DNA of 64,000 bases from an uncultured Shimia sp. (GTDB taxonomy: Bacteria > Pseudomonadota > Alphaproteobacteria > Rhodobacterales > Rhodobacteraceae). The first letter of the stretch is position 1. Each line of letters starts with the position of its first letter. The stretch covers positions 7,253 through 71,252 of the forward strand of contig NZ_CAJXIV010000005.1 of NCBI RefSeq assembly GCF_913054185.1. The letters are read 5' to 3'. Below are positions 9,607 to 47,148 of this stretch, one piece after another. A program made the translations under genes and the position numbers. The notes under the pieces are model-generated. The model did no database searches. It saw nothing but the letters and a program-made list of their open reading frames with translations, and had not been told where the DNA came from.

Positions 9607-9747
9607 TTTGAGAGTCATATTTTTTGGGAATGAGCGTGGAGGTCTGGAACACAGCGGGCAAATTGCCCCCTATACACACGTCCTTCTTCGGGTCACACCG
9701 CAAAAAAGTGGTCACGCCACCCGATCGCGAGACCGCACAGACGCCCC

Positions 9748-9809: not shown

Positions 9810-12020
9810 TCACGCAACCAAGCTGCCTCTGGCCCCGTCATCAGCGTCCTGATCCGGCGCGTGCATGACTTTGAAACCAGACACGGTGGTGGACAGAATC
9901 TTGGATTCCGATTGCGCCCCTTGCATGGCAGAGTTGACTTCAAAAAACGCCGCTGCATTTTCCTGTGTTGATTTGTCCAAACGACCCACCGCCACGTTGA
10001 TTTCGTTAATTCCAACAGAGGTGTCTTTGGTGGCTGCCGCAATGTGGCGAATTTGGTCCGTGGCGCCGTTTACGCCAACGACAATCTCATCAAAGGCTTT
10101 GCCTGTGTCGCGGACCAAAGACACGCCTCGCTCCACAGTCGATCCGGTGGTTTTGATGAGCTCGGAGATTTGTCTGGCAGACTCTGACGATTTTTGCGCC
10201 AAGGCTCGGACTTCAGAGGCCACAACAGCAAACCCTTGCCCAGCTTCTCCGGCACGGGCCGCTTCGACCCCCGCGTTGAGCGCCAGCAGGTTGGTTTGAA
10301 ACGCAATGTCCTCGATAACGGCCAAGGTGCCATCAATTGAATCTGTCGCCGCTTCGATTTCCGCCATTGCCTCAACCGCCAAGCTCATGACCTGCTGCCC
10401 TTGGGCCGCGCGATTGGTGATGTCGTCAACGGAGGTGTTTGCATCAGTTGCCGACGCCGCCATGGATCCAACCGTAGAGGACATCTGCTCCAACGCTGCC
10501 GCGGTTTCTTCCAAGGCCGCGGCGTTTTGTTCCGAGTTTGCCGCTACAGAATCCGTGGTGCGAGACACTTCTGACGACACATTTTCCACAACCGCCGCGG
10601 ATTTTGACACCAGATTGATTTTTTCAGACAGGCTGTCGGTTGCGGTGTTCATCGAGGTGGCGATATCGCCAAATATCCCCTGAAACCCGTCCGGCATCCG
10701 ATAGGTCAAATCCTGCTGCTCTATATGGCTCAGCCCGGTGCGCACCGCTTCCAGACCTTCATTTGCAGAGCTGCCAATGCTGTTCACCTTCACACAGATC
10801 TCTTTGAAGATGCCCTCTTTGTCCTCAGTGCCAAGCTGCCCGGTGAAATCACCACGGGCACAAGCTTCGACCACTTCGGCGATCTCTTCGGCTGCGACCT
10901 TTTCTGAGGCGCGTTGGGCCAACAACAGCTCAATGGAGGCATGTAATTCGGCAATTTCCTTGGCGGAGCTGCGGTATTTCAGCGGTTCTGCCTCATCCCC
11001 GCGGGCAGCGGAGGCCAATGCCTGTGTGCCTTCACGCAAAGGGCGCAGCTGTCGACGGCACCAGATCATCATGGCGCCAAGGAAAAGCGCGATCATGCCA
11101 AGAAGCGCACCCATAGCCCGGAAAATCACCGCATTTTTCTCGGCTTGTTGCGCCGAGAAATCCGACAGCAAAATCAGATCAAACGCAGTGCCGTTTTGGT
11201 CAACCGCAATCCGATTGCGCGCTGCAACAAAGTGATTGTCCCCGACCGCAATCACATCAAAGGTAAGCTCATTGCCAGCAAGCGCGGTCATCGTCGCAGT
11301 CGTGATCGCTTTTGGAGTCGGCACAGCAGACTCTGCGGCTGTGGAATCTTTGTCAGCTGTCGTTTCGGCCTCAGGCACCGCGGGGGCTTCATAGCCTTGC
11401 AGCTCCCATTGTGAGTCAGGCGTAATTTCCGCAAGCAAAACACTCATTTGCATGGCTTCCGCAATCACCGGAAGGCTGGATTGCGCATCCAAGGCTAGCA
11501 TACCGTAGCCCACCACATCACGGCCGGAAAACAGCGGGAACGCATAAACCGCGCCATACCGTGTTTCATCAATCTGTGTGATGCCAAACGCGCGCTGACG
11601 ACTTTCCTTTACGCCGCGAACAATGTCCGGTGCCGTGGCCTGAGAGAGGTTTTCATTGTGGGTGCTGAAGGCGGCAACAACGGACGTTTCTTTGTCAAAA
11701 ATGATCAGATCAGAGATCTCGCCCGACGCGGAGGCCCGGTTAAACGTCGAGGACAGGTCCTCTTGAACGACCGCAAAATCGCCGTCCTTAAGGGCCTTCA
11801 TACTGTCGCGGGCTCGCGACACAGTGCGCCCATGATTGGTCAGTGTCTTCTCGCTGCGTTGCAACACTTGCAGCGCGGCGACACTGGCGTTTTCAGCGTT
11901 TAGGGACAGCAAAGTTGTCTCAACCCGTTTCAGGATTGCCCCGCCGCCAATAACAAAAGCTGCGGTCATAGCCATTGCAAAAATACAAAGCCCCACGACG
12001 ATACGGTTTGAAAGTGACAT
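9810..12020 (-). CDS. Methyl-accepting chemotaxis protein with large periplasmic (Cache-like) sensor domain
   Basis: Two TM helices, HAMP-like segments, hallmark IAFQTNLLALNAGVEAARAGEAGQGFAVVASEVRALAQ. Start at ATG 12020. Confidence 0.93.
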   Translation of the reverse strand: MSLSNRIVVGLCIFAMAMTAAFVIGGGAILKRVETTLLSLNAENASVAALQVLQRSEKTLTNHGRTVSRARDSMKALKDGDFAVVQEDLSSTFNRASASGEISDLIIFDKETSVVAAFSTHNENLSQATAPDIVRGVKESRQRAFGITQIDETRYGAVYAFPLFSGRDVVGYGMLALDAQSSLPVIAEAMQMSVLLAEITPDSQWELQGYEAPAVPEAETTADKDSTAAESAVPTPKAITTATMTALAGNELTFDVIAVGDNHFVAARNRIAVDQNGTAFDLILLSDFSAQQAEKNAVIFRAMGALLGMIALFLGAMMIWCRRQLRPLREGTQALASAARGDEAEPLKYRSSAKEIAELHASIELLLAQRASEKVAAEEIAEVVEACARGDFTGQLGTEDKEGIFKEICVKVNSIGSSANEGLEAVRTGLSHIEQQDLTYRMPDGFQGIFGDIATSMNTATDSLSEKINLVSKSAAVVENVSSEVSRTTDSVAANSEQNAAALEETAAALEQMSSTVGSMAASATDANTSVDDITNRAAQGQQVMSLAVEAMAEIEAATDSIDGTLAVIEDIAFQTNLLALNAGVEAARAGEAGQGFAVVASEVRALAQKSSESARQISELIKTTGSTVERGVSLVRDTGKAFDEIVVGVNGATDQIRHIAAATKDTSVGINEINVAVGRLDKSTQENAAAFFEVNSAMQGAQSESKILSTTVSGFKVMHAPDQDADDGARGSLVA

Positions 12021-37767: not shown

Positions 37768-38496
37768 TTAGCCGCGTCCGATGTATGGCATCTTGGTCGC
37801 CATCACCGTCATGAACTGCACGTTTGCATTGAGCGGCAACTCGGCCATATGCAGCACCGATTTCGCGGCATCCTGAACATCCATAGTTGGATTGGGTGGT
37901 TTGCCGTCGGCCTGCAGGCGCGCGTTCAAATCTGCGACCATGTCGGTCTCCGCATTGCCAATATCAATCTGCCCACAGGCAATATCATAGGGCCGCCCGT
38001 CCAACGACAACGTCCGGGTCAGCCCGGTCACCGCATGTTTCGTGAGCGTGTAACATACCGATCCCTCGCGCGGCACATGCGCTGACAAAGACCCGTTGTT
38101 GATGATCCGTCCGCCTTGGGGCACTTGGCGCCGCATCTGCGCAAAAGCCAGCTTTGCCGCAATGAACATGCCGCGCACGTTCACGTCGAGCACCTGATCA
38201 AATCCCCCCAGATCGACCTCGTCGATCGGGCCCGCCGGACCAAACATACCCGCATTATTAAACAGCGCATCCAAACGCTCGGTGCGGGCCACAAACCTCG
38301 CGAAGGCGCTTTCCATTGCCGCCGCGTCCGTCACATCCGCCACCAGCGGCACCGCCGCGTCGTATTTGTTGGCCAATGCCTCCAACTTATCAGCGCTGCG
38401 CGCCAACACACCAACCCGCCAACCAGCGTTCAAAAACGCCTCAGCTGTCGCTTTGCCAATGCCTTGGCTCGCGCCGGTCACAATGATGCTCTTCAC
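37768..38496 (-). CDS. Short-chain dehydrogenase/reductase
   Basis: TGASQGIG, FNNAG, NNGSLS, YTLTK (YxxxK), IDIGNAET; GTG start overlapping helicase stop. Confidence 0.9.
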   Translation of the reverse strand: MKSIIVTGASQGIGKATAEAFLNAGWRVGVLARSADKLEALANKYDAAVPLVADVTDAAAMESAFARFVARTERLDALFNNAGMFGPAGPIDEVDLGGFDQVLDVNVRGMFIAAKLAFAQMRRQVPQGGRIINNGSLSAHVPREGSVCYTLTKHAVTGLTRTLSLDGRPYDIACGQIDIGNAETDMVADLNARLQADGKPPNPTMDVQDAAKSVLHMAELPLNANVQFMTVMATKMPYIGRG

Positions 38497-40025
38497 GCAT
38501 TTTCCTCCTGCGCCATCAACTCCAGCGGCGCAGGCGCCACCGTCAAATCACTCACGTCCAGCGGCCCAGTCGGTTTTGCCAGCCGGTTGCGCACCACCCA
38601 ATGCAGCCGCTCACTTGCCCGCGTGATCGCGACATAGGCCAAGCGCTTCCACAGCGGCTGCCCTGCTTCATTGCGATTCATCCGCGCTGCCACAAACAGG
38701 TCCGGCGCAAAAACCTGCACATTTTCCCATTGGGACCCCTGCGCCTTGTGAATGGTCACCGCCGCCCCATGCAGGAACGTCGCCCCCATGCGCGCGGCAT
38801 AGGGAATAAACGGCTCTTCTTCATCCGGCATTTCGATCTTCACAATTGAGGCCGCTGACACACGCGGATCTTCCGCGCCCATCACATGCAATCGCGAAAA
38901 TCCAGGCTTGCGCCCTGGCCCCAAGTAAATCACCTGCGCGCCTTTGATCAGCCCCCGCGCTTCCAGATCCAACCGCTTCTTGCGGTGCTTCATTGGCAGC
39001 TCAATCCCGTCACAGATCAGCGGCTCCCCTTCCATCAACGCATCTTCGGGCGCGCCGTGCACCTGTCGAAACGCGTTGATCAGCCGGATACGGGTTGCAT
39101 TGCGCCACACCAGTACCGGCGAGCGTGCCATCAAATCAACTTCCACCCGCTGCGCCAGAACCACACGATCATCTTTCCGCGCGGCGTCTTCGATCATGCT
39201 CTCAAAGTGGTGAAATTCCAGCTGCGGATCGGCCAGCGCATGCGCCAAATCCAAAATCGGATTGTCCGCGTCCTGCCGATGAATACGCTCAAGATTGTAG
39301 ACCGCAGGCGCCGGCAATTTGTCAAACACCATCGCACCCGACTGGTTCACAGGCGCCAATTGGGCCGGATCGCCAAACAGCACCAACGTGCTGAAAATCT
39401 CTTTCAAATCATCAAACTGCTTGTCATCCAGCATCGAGCTTTCGTCGATAAACCCGATGTCCAGCGGATCATCCCGCCGTTTCCAACCGGTGATAAAATC
39501 ACTGCCCCGTAACCCCGCCGCCGCCATTGCGCCGGGAATAGATTTGTGCAGCTGATAAAACGCATGAGCCCGATCCAAGGCTTCGTCCGTCAACCCTTCG
39601 ATCTCCGGCCGGTCACCCTTGTCTGCCAGCCACTCTGCGATCTTTTCATATTCAGGGTCATAAACCGGCGTGTAGATAATCCGGTGAATGGTGGTCGCAG
39701 GCACGCCGCGCATCCGCAAAACACTCGCCGCCTTGTTGGTGGGCGCCAAAATCGCCAGCGTGCGGTGATCTTTCTTGCGCTTGCCCTCATAGTCGCCGGA
39801 GACAATGTCCACACCCGCGCCTTCAAGCGCCTTTACCATCTCCGCCAAAAGCAACGTTTTGCCCGACCCAGCCTTGCCGGTGACGGCGGCAATCGCCTGC
39901 TTGCCTTCGATTGCAGGGGTCAACAGGCCCTCGTCCAAATCCACCCCCAGCCCTTTGAGCAAGGAGGAGATATTGTCAAAGGCCTCGGCCTGATCATGGC
40001 TGAATGTAACGGATGTGCTGCTCAT
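38493..40025 (-). CDS. Superfamily-1 (RecD2/Dda-like) ATP-dependent helicase
   Basis: TGKAGSGKT, LAPTNKAA, IDESSM, GDPAQLAPV, RIHRQ, TIHKAQGSQW, YVAITRA. Confidence 0.87.
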   Translation of the reverse strand: MSSTSVTFSHDQAEAFDNISSLLKGLGVDLDEGLLTPAIEGKQAIAAVTGKAGSGKTLLLAEMVKALEGAGVDIVSGDYEGKRKKDHRTLAILAPTNKAASVLRMRGVPATTIHRIIYTPVYDPEYEKIAEWLADKGDRPEIEGLTDEALDRAHAFYQLHKSIPGAMAAAGLRGSDFITGWKRRDDPLDIGFIDESSMLDDKQFDDLKEIFSTLVLFGDPAQLAPVNQSGAMVFDKLPAPAVYNLERIHRQDADNPILDLAHALADPQLEFHHFESMIEDAARKDDRVVLAQRVEVDLMARSPVLVWRNATRIRLINAFRQVHGAPEDALMEGEPLICDGIELPMKHRKKRLDLEARGLIKGAQVIYLGPGRKPGFSRLHVMGAEDPRVSAASIVKIEMPDEEEPFIPYAARMGATFLHGAAVTIHKAQGSQWENVQVFAPDLFVAARMNRNEAGQPLWKRLAYVAITRASERLHWVVRNRLAKPTGPLDVSDLTVAPAPLELMAQEENA

Positions 40026-40183
40026 GGCGCGACCCTACAGGGGGCCGCGATTGGGGGCCAGCCGGTTTGTATCGTAGCGCGACTATTGCGAATACCCCAC
40101 AGGTCGCGGCTGTACGTGAGATCGCCTAAAAATTGCTATCGCTGGGAAAATTTCGCGTTAAATAAAGTTCAAGGAGTTACTTC

Positions 40184-40879
40184 ATGTCTCAAACCGATTT
40201 CTCATCGCGCATTGACCGTATCAAAGCAAACGCCCCAGAGAGGCCGCAAGATGATACCTCCTTCATGTATAAGCCACGTAGGACCGACATCGTCGGCTTA
40301 GGCCTATACGTGAGTTGCCTGGCTCCTCTGTTGTTCGCCATTGCGAACAGGCTCGATACCATCTTCGATCTGGAAAACACAACGTCCCAAAACATCGCAG
40401 AGGTCACTCTCTCCAGCTTTTCAACCGCCGTTTTGATTTTTCTCCCGATCGCATCCATTTTCACGGTAATCGAAGCCTATGTAATTTATCGGGCATCCAA
40501 GAGGAAACTCAAACCAAGCGAGATGTCTCCAGAAAACATCGCTCGCCGTATAGACCGCAGAAAATACTCCGATCGCACCGTTGGCTTGCTCCTGGGCATC
40601 GCGTCGGTCTCATACTACGGGTTGTCACAGAGGGCCGCCGAGTTTGACACAAACATTCTACAGTACTTCGCGAAGTACTGTACCCTATTGGTTTTCTGCC
40701 AACTGTTCGCGGCGATACAAAGGCCCACAGCCATTTTGCTTCAACAACGCAGGTTGGCCTGGCGCACCCCCTTGTTCTTTACGATTGGCGCAACGTTAAC
40801 GTATTCAGCCTTCCATTTTTCTATTCTCAGCTTTTCAGACATGGACAGCATAGCTCTGAGAATACAAAGCGCTTTCTAG
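40184..40879 (+). CDS. Hypothetical polytopic membrane protein
   Basis: AAGGAG RBS; about five hydrophobic segments; no recognisable family; codon usage looks less GC-biased than neighbours. Confidence 0.6.
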   Translation: MSQTDFSSRIDRIKANAPERPQDDTSFMYKPRRTDIVGLGLYVSCLAPLLFAIANRLDTIFDLENTTSQNIAEVTLSSFSTAVLIFLPIASIFTVIEAYVIYRASKRKLKPSEMSPENIARRIDRRKYSDRTVGLLLGIASVSYYGLSQRAAEFDTNILQYFAKYCTLLVFCQLFAAIQRPTAILLQQRRLAWRTPLFFTIGATLTYSAFHFSILSFSDMDSIALRIQSAF

Positions 40880-40956
40880 TCTAGCAGCGCCACGGACGGC
40901 AGTAGAAAGACCAAACAAGGTCAATCCGGCAATGCCATTATAAAGTTAAGTCCCCA

Positions 40957-41027
40957 AACAAAAGCCCCCCGAAACCAAACGGCTCCGGGGGCTGCAGAAG
41001 AAAACAGGGGAAACCGTTTGACCAATC
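40957..41027 (-). repeat. Copy 1 of ~72-nt structured element (sRNA/terminator-like)
   Basis: About 90% identical to 42085-42156, with exact 24-nt and 17-nt blocks. Confidence 0.9.
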
Positions 41028-41101
41028 TCCGACGTTTTCTTCCCCGCTTAAGACGGCTGATCAGACGTAGGTTTCATGAAGCGCCTCAGCTGGTCGGAAC
41101 C

Positions 41102-42001
41102 TCAAAATGAATACATCCGCGTTCCAACCTCAACCGCTTCCCCCGCGATCTGCACCTTCAGTTTGCCGCCCTCACGGGAGACAGTGACATAAACAGTTCC
41201 CGGCAAGCCCAGCGCTACGCCCTGATGCCCCGGATAGGTGCAGCTGCGGTCACAATCGATCAAATCGTGATGCACAAGATACGCGCCCGTTGGTCCGTTT
41301 GCATTGCCCGTAACAGGATCCTCGTCGATACCAATCGCAGGCGCAAACATACGCCCATAGGTGACCGGGTTGGCGCGCGATCCCTCCAATACGAATGGGA
41401 AAAATCCATTACATCCAATGTCGCCACTGAGGGCGGCAAGCTGCGGCATATCTGGTTTCAACCCATCAAGCACCTTGCGCTCACGCAGGGGTATGATGAC
41501 TTTGGAGTGCCCGGTTGAGACAATCTGCACCGGCAGATCCATAAGATCGTCCGACATTATTCCGAGAGCTTTGACCAGACGGTTTTGCTCTATCGCCCCA
41601 AATGGGGTCATAAATTCTGGCACCCCCTGTGTCATCGACACGCGCAACGCACCGTCACCATGCAATTGGCTCAGTTCAACCGGCAGCAAGCCCGCGCCCG
41701 TTTTGGCAACCATTGGGTATTGCCCAGCGTGTCCTCGCACAGCTCGTAGAAAGTGTGTCGCTATCGTCGCGTGGCCGCAAATCGGCACTTCGCGGGTAGG
41801 CGTAAAGTATCTAACATGCACATCATGATCCCGCGCATCTGCGGGAAGAACAAACGCCGTTTCCGAGTATCCTGCAAACGCTGCGATGGCTTGCATCTGC
41901 TGGCTATCCAATCCCGCAGCATCCAGCACAACGCCCGCGCGGTTGCCGCTGTTTGGCGTTCGCGTAAATGCGTCGATGACAAAAACCTCTACAGAGCTCA
42001 C
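41102..42001 (-). CDS. PhzF/YddE-family isomerase
   Basis: DAFT..PNSGNRAGVV, YSETAF, YFTPTREVPICGHATIA, EDPVTGNANG; GTG start. Confidence 0.9.
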   Translation of the reverse strand: MSSVEVFVIDAFTRTPNSGNRAGVVLDAAGLDSQQMQAIAAFAGYSETAFVLPADARDHDVHVRYFTPTREVPICGHATIATHFLRAVRGHAGQYPMVAKTGAGLLPVELSQLHGDGALRVSMTQGVPEFMTPFGAIEQNRLVKALGIMSDDLMDLPVQIVSTGHSKVIIPLRERKVLDGLKPDMPQLAALSGDIGCNGFFPFVLEGSRANPVTYGRMFAPAIGIDEDPVTGNANGPTGAYLVHHDLIDCDRSCTYPGHQGVALGLPGTVYVTVSREGGKLKVQIAGEAVEVGTRMYSF

Positions 42002-42084
42002 GTGGCTGCCTCTCTTCTAAGAACAATTCCCAGAGATCGCAGCATGCAACTCACAGCTGAATAGAACAAGAGGCCACCCCCACC

Positions 42085-42156
42085 AACAAAAAGACCCCCG
42101 AAACCAAACGGCTCCGGGGGCTGAGGAGGGAAACGGGGGAAACCGTTTGACCAATC
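42085..42156 (-). ncRNA. Copy 2: ccr 3'-UTR element, candidate small RNA with intrinsic terminator
   Basis: Starts 8 nt after ccr stop; minus strand AAACGG-UUUCCC-CCGUUU hairpin, CCCUCCUC linker, 12-bp terminator and U tail. Confidence 0.5.
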
Positions 42157-42164
42157 CGTACGCG

Positions 42165-43451
42165 TTACTTGCTTGCGTCGATCACATCTTCCAGCGTGCG
42201 CAGGCCGGTCTTTGGTGCCTGCACCAGCACCGACATGTTGCCCGGCTTGTGCTCGTTACGCAGCATTTTCATGTGTGCATCCGGCAGCTCGGCCCATGGG
42301 AACACTTCTGACATGCATGGATCAAGACGACGCTCTACCATCAACTGGTTTGCAGATGCGGCCTGCTTCAAGTGGGCAAAGTGGGACCCCTGCAAGCGTT
42401 TCTGGTGCATCCACATGTAGCGCACGTCAAAGGTACAGTTGAAGCCAGAGGTGCCGGCACAGATCACAACCATGCCGCCCTTTTTCACCACAAGCGTGGA
42501 CACCGGGAAGGTCGCCTGACCGGGGTGTTCAAACACCATGTCCACGTTTACGCCTTTGCCGGTGATCTCCCAGATCGCCTTGCCAAACTTGCGCGCTTCT
42601 TTCAGCCAGTCATTGTATTCCGGCGTGTTCACAGTCGGCAATTGACCCCAGCAGTTGAAGTCATTCCGGTTGATCACGCCTTTGGCGCCCAGATTCATCA
42701 CAAAATCACGCTTGCTCTCATCCGAGATCACGCCAATCGCGTTGGCACCGGCAGTGTTGATCAGCTGGATCGCATAAGAGCCCAATCCACCAGACGCGCC
42801 CCACACCAGAACGTTCTGGCCCGGCTTCAGATCATGTGGCTCGTGACCAAACAGCATCCGGTAGGCGGTTGCCAATGTCAGCGTGTAACAGGCGCTCTCT
42901 TCCCAGGTCAGGTGCTTGGGACGTGGCATCAATTGCTGCGCCTGTACGCGGGTAAACTGAGAAAACGATCCGTCAGGGGTCTCATAGCCCCAGATGCGCT
43001 GGCTGTCGGAGAACATCGGGTCGCCGCCGTTGCAGTGCTCGTCGTCGCCGTCATCCTGGTTGCAGTGGATCACAACTTCGTCGCCCACTTTCCAGCGCTT
43101 CACCTTGTCGCCAATAGCCCAAACGATGCCCGCCGCATCAGAACCGGCAATGTGGTATGGCTGCTTGTGCACGTCAAACATGGACACCGGCACGCCGAGG
43201 CCAGCCCAAACGCCGTTGTAGTTCACACCGGCGGCCATCACCAGAACCAGAACCTCATGGCTGTCGAGCGTTGGCACATCCACAACTTCTTGCAGCATCG
43301 CCTTGTCCGGCTCGCCCTGACGCTCGCGGCGGATCGCCCACGCGTACATCTGCTTGGGCACATAGCCCATCGGGGGCATTTCACCCACTTCATAAAGATC
43401 TTTTTGTGGTGCGTCGTAAGTCGCAAGGCCGTTTTCGGTATCCAGAGCCAT
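42165..43451 (-). CDS. ccr: Crotonyl-CoA carboxylase/reductase
   Basis: MYAWAIRRER, VMAAGVNYNGVWA, HIAGSD, IWGYETPDGSF, YTLTLATAYRML, WMHQKRLQGSHFA; AGGAGG RBS before ATG 43451. Confidence 0.97.
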   Translation of the reverse strand: MALDTENGLATYDAPQKDLYEVGEMPPMGYVPKQMYAWAIRRERQGEPDKAMLQEVVDVPTLDSHEVLVLVMAAGVNYNGVWAGLGVPVSMFDVHKQPYHIAGSDAAGIVWAIGDKVKRWKVGDEVVIHCNQDDGDDEHCNGGDPMFSDSQRIWGYETPDGSFSQFTRVQAQQLMPRPKHLTWEESACYTLTLATAYRMLFGHEPHDLKPGQNVLVWGASGGLGSYAIQLINTAGANAIGVISDESKRDFVMNLGAKGVINRNDFNCWGQLPTVNTPEYNDWLKEARKFGKAIWEITGKGVNVDMVFEHPGQATFPVSTLVVKKGGMVVICAGTSGFNCTFDVRYMWMHQKRLQGSHFAHLKQAASANQLMVERRLDPCMSEVFPWAELPDAHMKMLRNEHKPGNMSVLVQAPKTGLRTLEDVIDASK

Positions 43452-43471
43452 TTTCGCCTCCTGATTGGTCG

Positions 43472-43487
43472 TTTCGCCGCGATGCAG
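43472..43487. promoter_or_regulatory. Candidate operator upstream of ccr (PhaR-like)
   Basis: TTTCGCCGCGATGCAG, 15/16 identical to 45046-45061. Confidence 0.5.
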
Positions 43488-43569
43488 AATCGCGTTCCTG
43501 CCACCGTGATATTGATGGAGGGGTAACATTGCAACCTTCTTGGGTCCAATTTTGTAATTTAATAACCCA

Positions 43570-45153: not shown

Positions 45154-47148
45154 ATGTCGCAGACGCAGAAAAATCAGACCACTGACAAGCCAACCAAGGA
45201 TCGTCCGTGGTTGATTCGTACCTACGCTGGCCATTCCACCGCAAAAGCCTCAAACGCGCTCTACCGCTCCAATTTGGAAAAAGGCCAAACCGGCCTCTCT
45301 GTCGCCTTCGACCTGCCGACTCAGACCGGCTATGACAGCGACCACATTCTTGCACGCGGCGAAGTGGGCAAAGTGGGCGTTCCCGTCAGTCACCTCGGCG
45401 ACATGCGCACCCTGTTTGATCAGATCCCGCTAGAGCAGATGAACACCTCCATGACAATCAACGCCACCGCCCCGTGGCTCTTGGCGCTTTATATCGCCAC
45501 CGCGGAGGAGCAAGGCGCCGATGTCACCAAGCTGCAAGGCACGGTGCAAAACGACCTGATCAAAGAATACCTGTCACGCGGCACCTATATCTGCCCGCCG
45601 GAACCCAGCCTGAAGATGATCGCGGACGTGGCGGAGTACTGCTACACCAATGTGCCCAAGTGGAACCCAATGAACGTCTGTTCCTACCACCTGCAGGAGG
45701 CCGGTGCGACACCGGAGCAGGAGCTGGCCTTTGCGCTGGCCACCGCCATTGCCGTGCTCGACGCGCTGAAACCCCGCGTGCCTGCACAAGATTTCCCAGC
45801 CCTCGCCGGCCGCATCTCTTTCTTTGTGAACGCGGGCATCCGCTTTGTCACCGAGATGTGCAAGATGCGCGCCTTTGTGGATCTCTGGGACGAAATTCTT
45901 GTTGAGCGGTATGGCGTGACCGATCCCAAATTCCGCCGCTTCCGCTATGGCGTTCAGGTCAACTCGCTAGGCCTCACCGAGCAGCAGCCAGAGAATAACG
46001 TCTATCGAATTCTGATCGAAATGCTCGCTGTAACTCTGTCCAAAAAGGCCCGCGCCCGCGCGGTGCAATTGCCTGCTTGGAACGAAGCGCTTGGTTTGCC
46101 ACGCCCCTGGGATCAGCAATGGTCCATGCGCATGCAGCAAATCATGGCGTTTGAAACCGACCTTTTGGAATACGACGACCTGTTTGACGGAAACCCTGCG
46201 GTCGATGCCAAAGTGGAAGAGTTAAAAGACGGCGCGCGTCGCGAGTTGGCCAATTTGGGAAGCATGGGCGGTGCTATTGGCGCGATTGACTATATGAAAT
46301 CTCGTCTTGTCGACAGCAACGCCGAGCGCCTGAACCGCATCGAGGCGGGTGAGACTATTGTTGTGGGCGTGAACAAGTTCCAAAAGGGCGAAGCCTCTCC
46401 ATTGATGACCGGAGATGGCGGCATCATGGTGGTGGATCCTGCCGTGGAGCAGGAACAGATCACCCGCCTCAACGACTGGCGCAGCCAACGCAACAACGCC
46501 GCCGTGGAAAAAGCTCTGGCCGACCTGCGCGCCGCTGCTGCTGATGGCAAAAACGTCATGCCCGCGTCAATTGCCGCGGCCAAAGCGGGCGTCACCACCG
46601 GTGAATGGGCCGCACAGATGCGTGTGGTGCACGGTGAATACCGGGGCCCAACCGGTGTCTCTGGCGCCCCATCTAACAAAACCGAAGGTCTGGACGAATT
46701 ACGGGACGCGGTAAACACTGTCTCTGACAAACTTGGGCGCCGCCTGAAATTTGTCATTGGTAAACCGGGACTTGACGGCCACTCTAACGGTGCAGAGCAA
46801 ATAGCCTTCCGCGCCCGAGATTGCGGTATGGACATCACCTACGATGGCATTCGCCTCACCCCAGAAGAAATCGTCGCCAAGGCCATTGAAGACGACGCCC
46901 ATGTGGTTGGCCTGTCGATCCTGTCAGGGTCGCACATTCCACTGGTCGAAGACCTAATGCAGCGCATGCGCGATGTTGGCTTGGGCGACACCCCCGTCAT
47001 TGTTGGTGGCATCATTCCGGACGAAGATGCCGAGCGTCTGCGTGCCATGGGTGTATCCCGCGTCTATACGCCAAAAGACTTTGAGCTCAACACCATCATG
47101 GGGGACATCGTCACCTTGGCGAATCCCGCCTCTGTGGCCGCGCAATAG
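45154..47148 (+). CDS. ecm: Ethylmalonyl-CoA mutase (MeaA), B12-dependent
   Basis: PWLIRTYAGHS, GQTGLSVAFDLPTQTGYDSD, SYHLQEAG, QLPAWNEALGLP, GKPGLDGHSNG; clustered with ccr. Confidence 0.96.
   Translation: MSQTQKNQTTDKPTKDRPWLIRTYAGHSTAKASNALYRSNLEKGQTGLSVAFDLPTQTGYDSDHILARGEVGKVGVPVSHLGDMRTLFDQIPLEQMNTSMTINATAPWLLALYIATAEEQGADVTKLQGTVQNDLIKEYLSRGTYICPPEPSLKMIADVAEYCYTNVPKWNPMNVCSYHLQEAGATPEQELAFALATAIAVLDALKPRVPAQDFPALAGRISFFVNAGIRFVTEMCKMRAFVDLWDEILVERYGVTDPKFRRFRYGVQVNSLGLTEQQPENNVYRILIEMLAVTLSKKARARAVQLPAWNEALGLPRPWDQQWSMRMQQIMAFETDLLEYDDLFDGNPAVDAKVEELKDGARRELANLGSMGGAIGAIDYMKSRLVDSNAERLNRIEAGETIVVGVNKFQKGEASPLMTGDGGIMVVDPAVEQEQITRLNDWRSQRNNAAVEKALADLRAAAADGKNVMPASIAAAKAGVTTGEWAAQMRVVHGEYRGPTGVSGAPSNKTEGLDELRDAVNTVSDKLGRRLKFVIGKPGLDGHSNGAEQIAFRARDCGMDITYDGIRLTPEEIVAKAIEDDAHVVGLSILSGSHIPLVEDLMQRMRDVGLGDTPVIVGGIIPDEDAERLRAMGVSRVYTPKDFELNTIMGDIVTLANPASVAAQ

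Follow-up and report, generated by a model that had tools for sequence, protein, structure and literature searches.

The crotonyl-CoA carboxylase/reductase gene (ccr) of an uncultured Shimia sp. is followed in its 3' untranslated region (3' UTR) by a structured element, a second copy of which lies behind a neighboring gene. We analyzed both copies in a stretch of 64,000 nucleotides (nt) from contig NZ_CAJXIV010000005.1 of assembly GCF_913054185.1 (hereafter the window), on whose minus strand the order is ccr, the ccr-proximal copy (E2), a PhzF-family gene (phzF), and the phzF-distal copy (E1). On balance, E2 is probably a lineage-specific hairpin plus intrinsic terminator of the ccr 3' UTR, which was duplicated as a hypervariable slot downstream of ccr was rearranged, with the result that E1 now ends phzF. 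The main role of E2 would be to end ccr transcription at the border of a slot with changing content, and it would also make the 3' end of the ccr mRNA stable and resistant to exonucleases. E1 would be a recent copy of the whole unit from stop codon to terminator, made as the slot was rearranged in the lineage of the window, probably when two ccr-E alleles recombined by an unequal or single crossover and left phzF bracketed. It would now serve as the phzF terminator, with only its terminator hairpin maintained and its 5' half drifting. If so, this is ordinary biology that dates the duplication of a 3'-UTR module upon slot rearrangement and shows which half of the duplicate remains under selection. 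It also cautions that repeated terminator-bearing elements may be misread as paralogues of a small RNA (sRNA), which is how the two copies were interpreted in a preliminary description of this DNA.

The two copies are 74-nt direct repeats on the minus strand (42083–42156 and 40954–41027), 89% identical and 1129 nt apart from start to start. The repeat unit starts at approximately the ccr stop codon and extends about 10 nt beyond the U-tract, slightly longer than stated before. When a 20-nt segment of the 5' part and a 27-nt segment of the terminator part were searched against the 64 kb with up to three mismatches allowed, each gave exactly two matches, where shuffled sequences gave an expectation of zero, and there was no third copy in the window. 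Upstream of the repeat, the similarity of the ccr coding tail between the copies was no higher than chance. The duplicated structured element is therefore real and unique in the 64 kb, and its sequence details had been described correctly. Relative to E2, stem 1 of E1 carries a single C-to-U change that turns a G-C pair into a G-U pair, and the CU-rich tract carries four changes (CCCUCCUC to UCUUCUGC) that remove CCUCC. The predicted folds of the two copies (−33 and −34 kcal/mol) were more stable than those of shuffled sequences, with z values of about −3.

The terminators of E1 and E2 are nearly identical, with GC-rich stems of 11 and 12 base pairs (bp), each followed by a U-tract, and they were the two top terminator-like sites in an 8-kb scan. 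In E2, the 12-bp stem GCCCCCGGAGCC/GGUUUCGGGGGU contains eight G-C pairs, closes on the 4-nt loop GUUU, and is followed by CUUUUUG; in orthologues, the stem is kept by wobble-compatible changes. Both copies thus combine a GC-rich stem-loop and a U-tract with a site just past the stop codon of a gene in the same orientation, as intrinsic terminators do. The likeness to intrinsic terminators with an upstream stabilizing hairpin extends to the 4-nt loop, the second hairpin just upstream, the location of E2 directly behind a highly conserved metabolic gene, and the wobble-compatible substitutions that preserve its structure. E2 differs from them in that conservation among species with far-diverged neutral sites extends to its sequence and is not limited to its structure, and in that a duplicate of the whole unit stands behind a neighboring gene.

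We compared the window with 80 ccr loci from GTDB species (Ccr 83–90% identical) and with Shimia and PhzF-relative contigs, including S. sagamensis (L092), S. marina (L103), a Logan contig (L087), and GCA_947492585.1 (L090). The less conserved acyltransferase encoded upstream of ccr shares 95% identity with its S. sagamensis counterpart, 82% with that of S. marina, and 69% with that of S. aestuarii. A single copy of E2 was found directly behind ccr in S. sagamensis, Shimia sp. L094–98, L107, and S. marina, all without phzF. The BLAST match covered 73/73 nt at 97% identity in S. sagamensis, and the identity was 90% in Shimia sp. L094–98. A covariance model (R1) built from seven copies scored 84–101 bits at the same position in L087, L092, L094–98, L103, and L107, and gave weaker hits to diverged versions in L088 (E of about 1e-6) and L090 (E of about 6e-3). 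E2 was not detected by blastn-short behind ccr in the 80 GTDB Rhodobacterales, where the covariance model matched only the terminators. It was also absent from S. aestuarii and S. thalassica, which retain luxRI and carry, like the 80 other genomes, only a terminator of different sequence. The general link between the element and ccr that had been proposed is therefore not borne out.

E1 was found only in the window, its metagenomic counterpart L001, and L087. As E2 occurs across Shimia lineages and E1 only in the window lineage and L087, E2 is the ancestral copy and E1 a lineage-specific duplicate. By sequence and position, E2 is orthologous across Shimia species, and these comparisons identify it as an undescribed conserved ccr 3'-UTR element of one Shimia subclade. 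Its novelty, already claimed, agrees with the database searches: no Rfam covariance model reached its gathering score anywhere in the window, and at E ≤ 10 the interval 40900–42250 gave only an irrelevant small nucleolar RNA hit inside phzF. A literature search found no paper joining crotonyl-CoA, sRNA, UTR, and Rhodobacter.

To measure selection, identities between the window and its relatives were compared with those at four-fold degenerate sites. For S. sagamensis, identity was 0.66 at four-fold sites, 0.89 in the ccr 3' UTR (82 nt), and 0.94 in the acyltransferase-ccr intergenic region; the corresponding values were 0.60, 0.80, and 0.86 for L094, and 0.53, 0.77, and 0.75 for S. marina. The ccr 3' UTR is thus conserved to an extent similar to that of the ccr 5' regulatory region, and its identity exceeds that of the four-fold sites in every comparison. 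This indicates purifying selection along the full extent of E2, with the 5' hairpin and CCUCC included. This agrees with the earlier claim that the copy behind ccr is a structured 3'-UTR element whose conserved sequence reaches beyond the terminator and includes the CCUCC tract. Conservation of the terminator alone had been named as part of the outcome that would speak against an sRNA; in the E2 lineages within Shimia, the 5' module is conserved as well.

E1 behaves differently. Between the window and L087, E2 is identical at 72/74 positions and E1 at 63/72, while the four-fold sites of phzF are identical at 129/157 (0.82), indicating that E1 changes at about the neutral rate. The changes within the E1 terminator fall in the loop or at the stem base or are wobble-compatible, and only the terminator looks maintained. 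The 5' half of E1 thus appears to drift at about the neutral rate, with only the terminator kept. The identity of E1 to E2 within genomes was not above that between genomes, giving no sign of recent gene conversion. E1 is also predicted to fold differently from E2, with GGAGAUUGG/CGGUUUCC enclosed by GAAGAAAAC/GUUUUCUUC, which uses unique upstream sequence. An sRNA pair with divergent seed regions, as originally suggested, is hard to reconcile with a copy that is confined to the window lineage and L087 and retains only terminator features; a kept terminator and a drifting 5' half suggest that E1 and E2 are not a functional sRNA pair.

Hairpin 1 of E2 has a core of AAACGG (42143–42148) paired with CCGUUU (42131–42136) around the loop UUUCCC. 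Minimum-energy folds of the window and the orthologues extend this hairpin by pairing GGA..GG (42151–42157) with CC.UCC (42125–42130). The CU-rich tract had been described as an unpaired linker, but the folds predict base pairs between it and the 5' GGA..GG, with a mean P(unpaired) of 0.26–0.47 in five E2 orthologues. L088 has GAGAGA-CGG/CCG-A-UUUCUC at the site of this extended hairpin. CCUCC is invariant in six E2 lineages and still recognizable in L088. Over nine copies, 97.5% of the cells of the two-hairpin model were paired, and the value for hairpin 1 was 96%. Compensatory changes in hairpin 1 occurred only in L090 and L088, and the two-sided changes, at six pairs, all came from these two distant loci in a model-fitted alignment.

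The slot between the ccr terminator and a helicase gene, itself found behind ccr in most of the 80 Rhodobacterales loci, is hypervariable in this order (window 40026–42082; L004, L011, L091, L092, L094, L103–L105, and L107). It holds luxR-luxI in most roseobacters, phzF and an open reading frame (ORF) termed hyp231 in the window, and other ORFs in other Shimia, and it is empty in Rhodobacter-like genomes. Among Shimia genomes, homology breaks off directly behind the U-tract and is regained about 40 nt ahead of the helicase gene. The window and L087 lose homology just past E1, and their cargo downstream of E1 differs, the L087 ORF at the position of hyp231 being only 30% identical. Neither hyp231 nor the other cargo ORFs, including a 232-amino-acid ORF, had a Pfam or NCBIfam family or a convincing PADLOC family. 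The co-oriented phzF begins 82 nt downstream of E2; it is absent from the ccr loci of S. sagamensis, S. marina, L094, and L107 as well as from the 80 GTDB loci, and is present at the same locus in L087 (89% amino acid identity) and L088 (72%). In L088, the order is ccr, E, phzF, and then directly the helicase gene, with neither a second copy nor hyp231. An exact match to the PhzF protein of the window was known only from marine metagenome contigs (L001). Beyond the two metagenomic relatives (89% and 72%), the nearest PhzF homologues are those of Vibrio and Acinetobacter at 62–66%, which suggests that phzF is a patchy, laterally transferred gene.

A comparable arrangement was observed in the same slot of S. 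marina, where the tail of the 232-amino-acid ORF and its terminator are repeated behind an inserted 175-amino-acid ORF (9620–9723 versus 10364–10453). S. marina has an additional 59-nt direct repeat there (10311–10369 versus 11381–11439). Such recurrent duplications of tail plus terminator fit unequal or single-crossover recombination between alleles. As in direct repeats left by these processes, a resident stretch of about 95 nt stands on both sides of a gene whose slot varies among close relatives, and S. marina supplies an independent analogous case; the differences are that no recombinase gene is nearby and that the inserted segment is uncertain.

Several points qualify or weigh against the terminator-and-duplicate account. 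Neither the 75-nt spacer that precedes E1 nor the sequence that follows E1 matched any of the fetched loci, which leaves the spacer without a recognizable donor. The presence of phzF in L088 means that it may be old at the locus, which leaves it uncertain which segment was inserted. Selection on the 5' hairpin and CCUCC exceeds what a terminator needs, and an extra role, as an sRNA, in protein binding, or in mRNA stability, is likely. Finally, the extended GGA..GG/CC.UCC pairing is a prediction from folding models, and the close E2 orthologues show no covariation. Metatranscriptome contigs bear little on the matter: depth falls from hundreds in ccr to 2–4 beyond its stop codon, in mixed taxa and confounded by strain divergence, and the contigs, whose ccr comes from other taxa, gave no informative transcript ends at the element.

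The extra conservation makes an sRNA the most serious alternative, since the 5' hairpin and CCUCC are conserved well above neutral directly behind a signature gene of the ethylmalonyl-CoA pathway. In this alternative, E2 alone would be the source of a 3'-UTR-derived sRNA and E1 a decaying by-product, which we consider possible but unlikely. The sRNA would be released by processing of the ccr mRNA close to ACGGAU, the conserved 5' edge, and would have the shared terminator as its 3' end; its CCUCC would pair with the Shine-Dalgarno regions of targets, coupling the expression of ccr to other genes or to ccr itself. The conservation of the 5' module far above the neutral rate and the invariance of CCUCC speak for it. 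Hfq-type sRNAs usually consist of a 5' hairpin, a CU-rich tract, and a terminator with a U-tail, which is the layout of E2, and the AGGAGG Shine-Dalgarno of ccr is complementary to CCUCCU, although this complementarity is generic. Against it, the predictions place CCUCC largely in a helix with the conserved GGA..GG, and this pairing would by itself explain the conservation of both. A crude scan found no sigma-70-like site near 42160–42300, inside the 3' end of ccr, the element is limited to part of one genus and has no Rfam match, and metatranscriptome contigs cover it only at a depth of 2–4 in mixed taxa. UACGGAU bears some resemblance to the consensus for CsrA binding, to which no weight was given.

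Precedent exists: sRNAs that derive from 3' UTRs and use the terminator of the mRNA, among them autoregulatory ones of the OppZ/CarZ type, are well documented (PMC9438474, PMC7398697). E2 resembles them in its location at an mRNA 3' end, its length of about 75 nt, the pyrimidine-rich tract before the terminator, and the U-tail; it differs in that its candidate seed is predicted to be largely base-paired and that it occurs in part of one genus. A more specific version holds that E2 is an undescribed 3'-UTR regulatory RNA of ccr in Shimia whose CCUCC represses Shine-Dalgarno regions in trans or that of ccr, that it arose after the subclade lost luxRI, and that E1 is a copied sRNA module decaying into a plain terminator; we regard this version as somewhat less likely still.

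One candidate contact within the ccr mRNA was tried and rejected. The 5' end of E2, GAUUGGUC (42149–42156), is the exact reverse complement of GACCAAUC in the ccr 5' UTR (window 43457–43480, minus strand), which adjoins the ccr Shine-Dalgarno, and the match is also present in S. sagamensis. However, only the 5'-UTR 8-mer survives in L094, and only that of E2 in S. marina. Because the losses are one-sided and the 8-nt match does not covary, it was treated as probably due to chance, and the lack of covariation speaks against the sRNA alternative.

Kinship with known alphaproteobacterial sRNAs is not supported either. CcsR/cuckoo and AbcR carry their anti-Shine-Dalgarno motif in hairpin loops and occur as tandem sRNA genes in one intergenic region. 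E2 shares with them a CU-rich, anti-Shine-Dalgarno-like motif and a similar copy nearby. Unlike theirs, its loops read UUUCCC and GUUU, and CCUCC occupies either the stretch between the two hairpins or one arm of a stem; phzF separates the copies, which start 1129 nt from each other and stand at the 3' ends of two mRNAs, and E1 is decaying. The proposed kinship thus fails on the covariance-model match, the position of CCUCC outside hairpin loops, and the different flanking gene.

That the unit is a mobile or recombinogenic repeat, comparable to repetitive extragenic palindromes, miniature inverted-repeat transposable elements, or an attachment site, and marks the borders of inserted cassettes, seems very unlikely. 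The direct repeats do bracket exactly one inserted gene, the variable cargo starts right past the U-tract in every Shimia genome, and S. marina has a similar bracketed arrangement. However, each Shimia locus of 11–13 kb has one copy, always at the ccr 3' end, and neither the window nor related loci totaling about 1 Mb contained a further true copy, although no whole Shimia genome was scanned. PLSDB plasmids gave no match to the element, and a JGI metagenome scan with a 19-mer of the 5' module gave five exact matches, all without the rest of it. No integrase or transposase was found among the neighboring genes examined, and the S. marina repeat is the tail of a different gene with a different sequence, so that the process recurs rather than a specific site.

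A helix between the 5' segment and the terminator, which had been proposed as an alternative to the terminator, proved partly right. In simulated nascent RNA up to the terminator loop, CAAACGGUUUC/GGAGCCGUUUG forms and replaces hairpin 1 in the window and L087, but it is not predicted in six other orthologues (S. sagamensis, L094, L107, S. marina, L088, and L090), all of which keep hairpin 1. Loop changes that remove it are G to U in S. sagamensis, GCCU in L094, and GCAA in L107 and S. marina. That E2 is a conditional terminator (attenuator) of read-through into the downstream gene, with an antiterminator formed by its 5' segment and the loop and 3' arm of the terminator, is thus barely credible: the helix is predicted in the window and L087 and phzF lies co-oriented downstream, but the helix is lost in those six orthologues, the downstream gene varies among species while E2 stays unchanged, and no sensor domain, leader peptide, or Rfam riboswitch was found.

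Coordinates of the two copies, their parts, and the genes of the locus (positions in the window)
Feature	Position	Strand	Basis or remark
E2, conserved ccr 3'-UTR module	42083..42158	-	starts 6 nt past ccr stop codon
E1, duplicate of ccr 3'-UTR module	40954..41029	-	starts 75 nt past phzF stop codon
E2 hairpin 1	42125..42157	-	minimum-energy folds, RNAalifold consensus, pair counts
CU-rich tract UUUCCCUCCUC with anti-Shine-Dalgarno-like CCUCC	42123..42133	-	alignments
E2 intrinsic terminator	42087..42121	-	top terminator-scan hit, fold, orthologue stem changes
E1 terminator	40966–40991	-	11 pairs, then GCUUUUG
ccr, crotonyl-CoA carboxylase/reductase, 429 amino acids	42165..43454	-	Pfam ADH_N and ADH_zinc_N; named homologues 83–93% identical
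phzF, PhzF-family isomerase gene, 299 amino acids, GTG start, flanked by E2 and E1	41102..42001	-	PF02567 3.9e-72; NF007625 above cut-off
hyp231, ORF convergent with phzF, variable cargo downstream of E1	40184..40879	+	position; no Pfam or NCBIfam hit
RecD-like superfamily 1 (SF1) helicase gene, conserved right-hand anchor of the slot	38493..40025	-	Pfam AAA_30 and UvrD_C_2
MM_CoA_mutase/B12-binding gene (ecm-like), divergent	45154–47148		Pfam

The start codon of ccr is the ATG at 43454, with an AGGAGG Shine-Dalgarno 6 nt ahead of it, and the ORF is open as far as 43529. Upstream of ccr, at about 43470–43545 on the minus strand, the motifs GGTTGCAATGTTAC and a small palindrome, GCGATTCTGCRTYGCGGC, are conserved across genera (L090–L092, L094, L103, and L104), and may be promoter, operator, or 5'-UTR elements of ccr.

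Among Ccr proteins from other than Shimia loci, that of L090 (6001–7420) is the closest (93%), and the 3' UTR of its gene contains a diverged version of the E2 5' module. L090 is far more distant in its acyltransferase (57%), ecm (83%), and helicase (78%), a contrast that suggests a recombinational exchange of ccr together with its 3' end. In seawater metagenome contigs (DNA runs X1–X3, window 42082–42095), at least one further relative was observed, with ccr and E2 bearing small indels and another unrelated sequence immediately past the E2 U-tract.

Behind ccr in many roseobacter genera, the terminator stem itself is shared, reading RCCCGCGAATC-loop-GRTTCGCGGGY despite saturated neutral sites. 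It was present in about 22 of the 80 loci (for example, L004 6315, L006 6314, L007 6317, L010 6316, L020 6313, and L060 6342), and luxR and/or luxI lie downstream in 20 of the 22. The RCCCGCGAATC motif forms a hairpin nowhere else in the 828 kb of loci. This degree of sequence conservation in a terminator stem is unexpected and may reflect phylogenetic inertia, a function at the RNA level, or the binding of a protein; it may merit more attention than the finding on E1 and E2.

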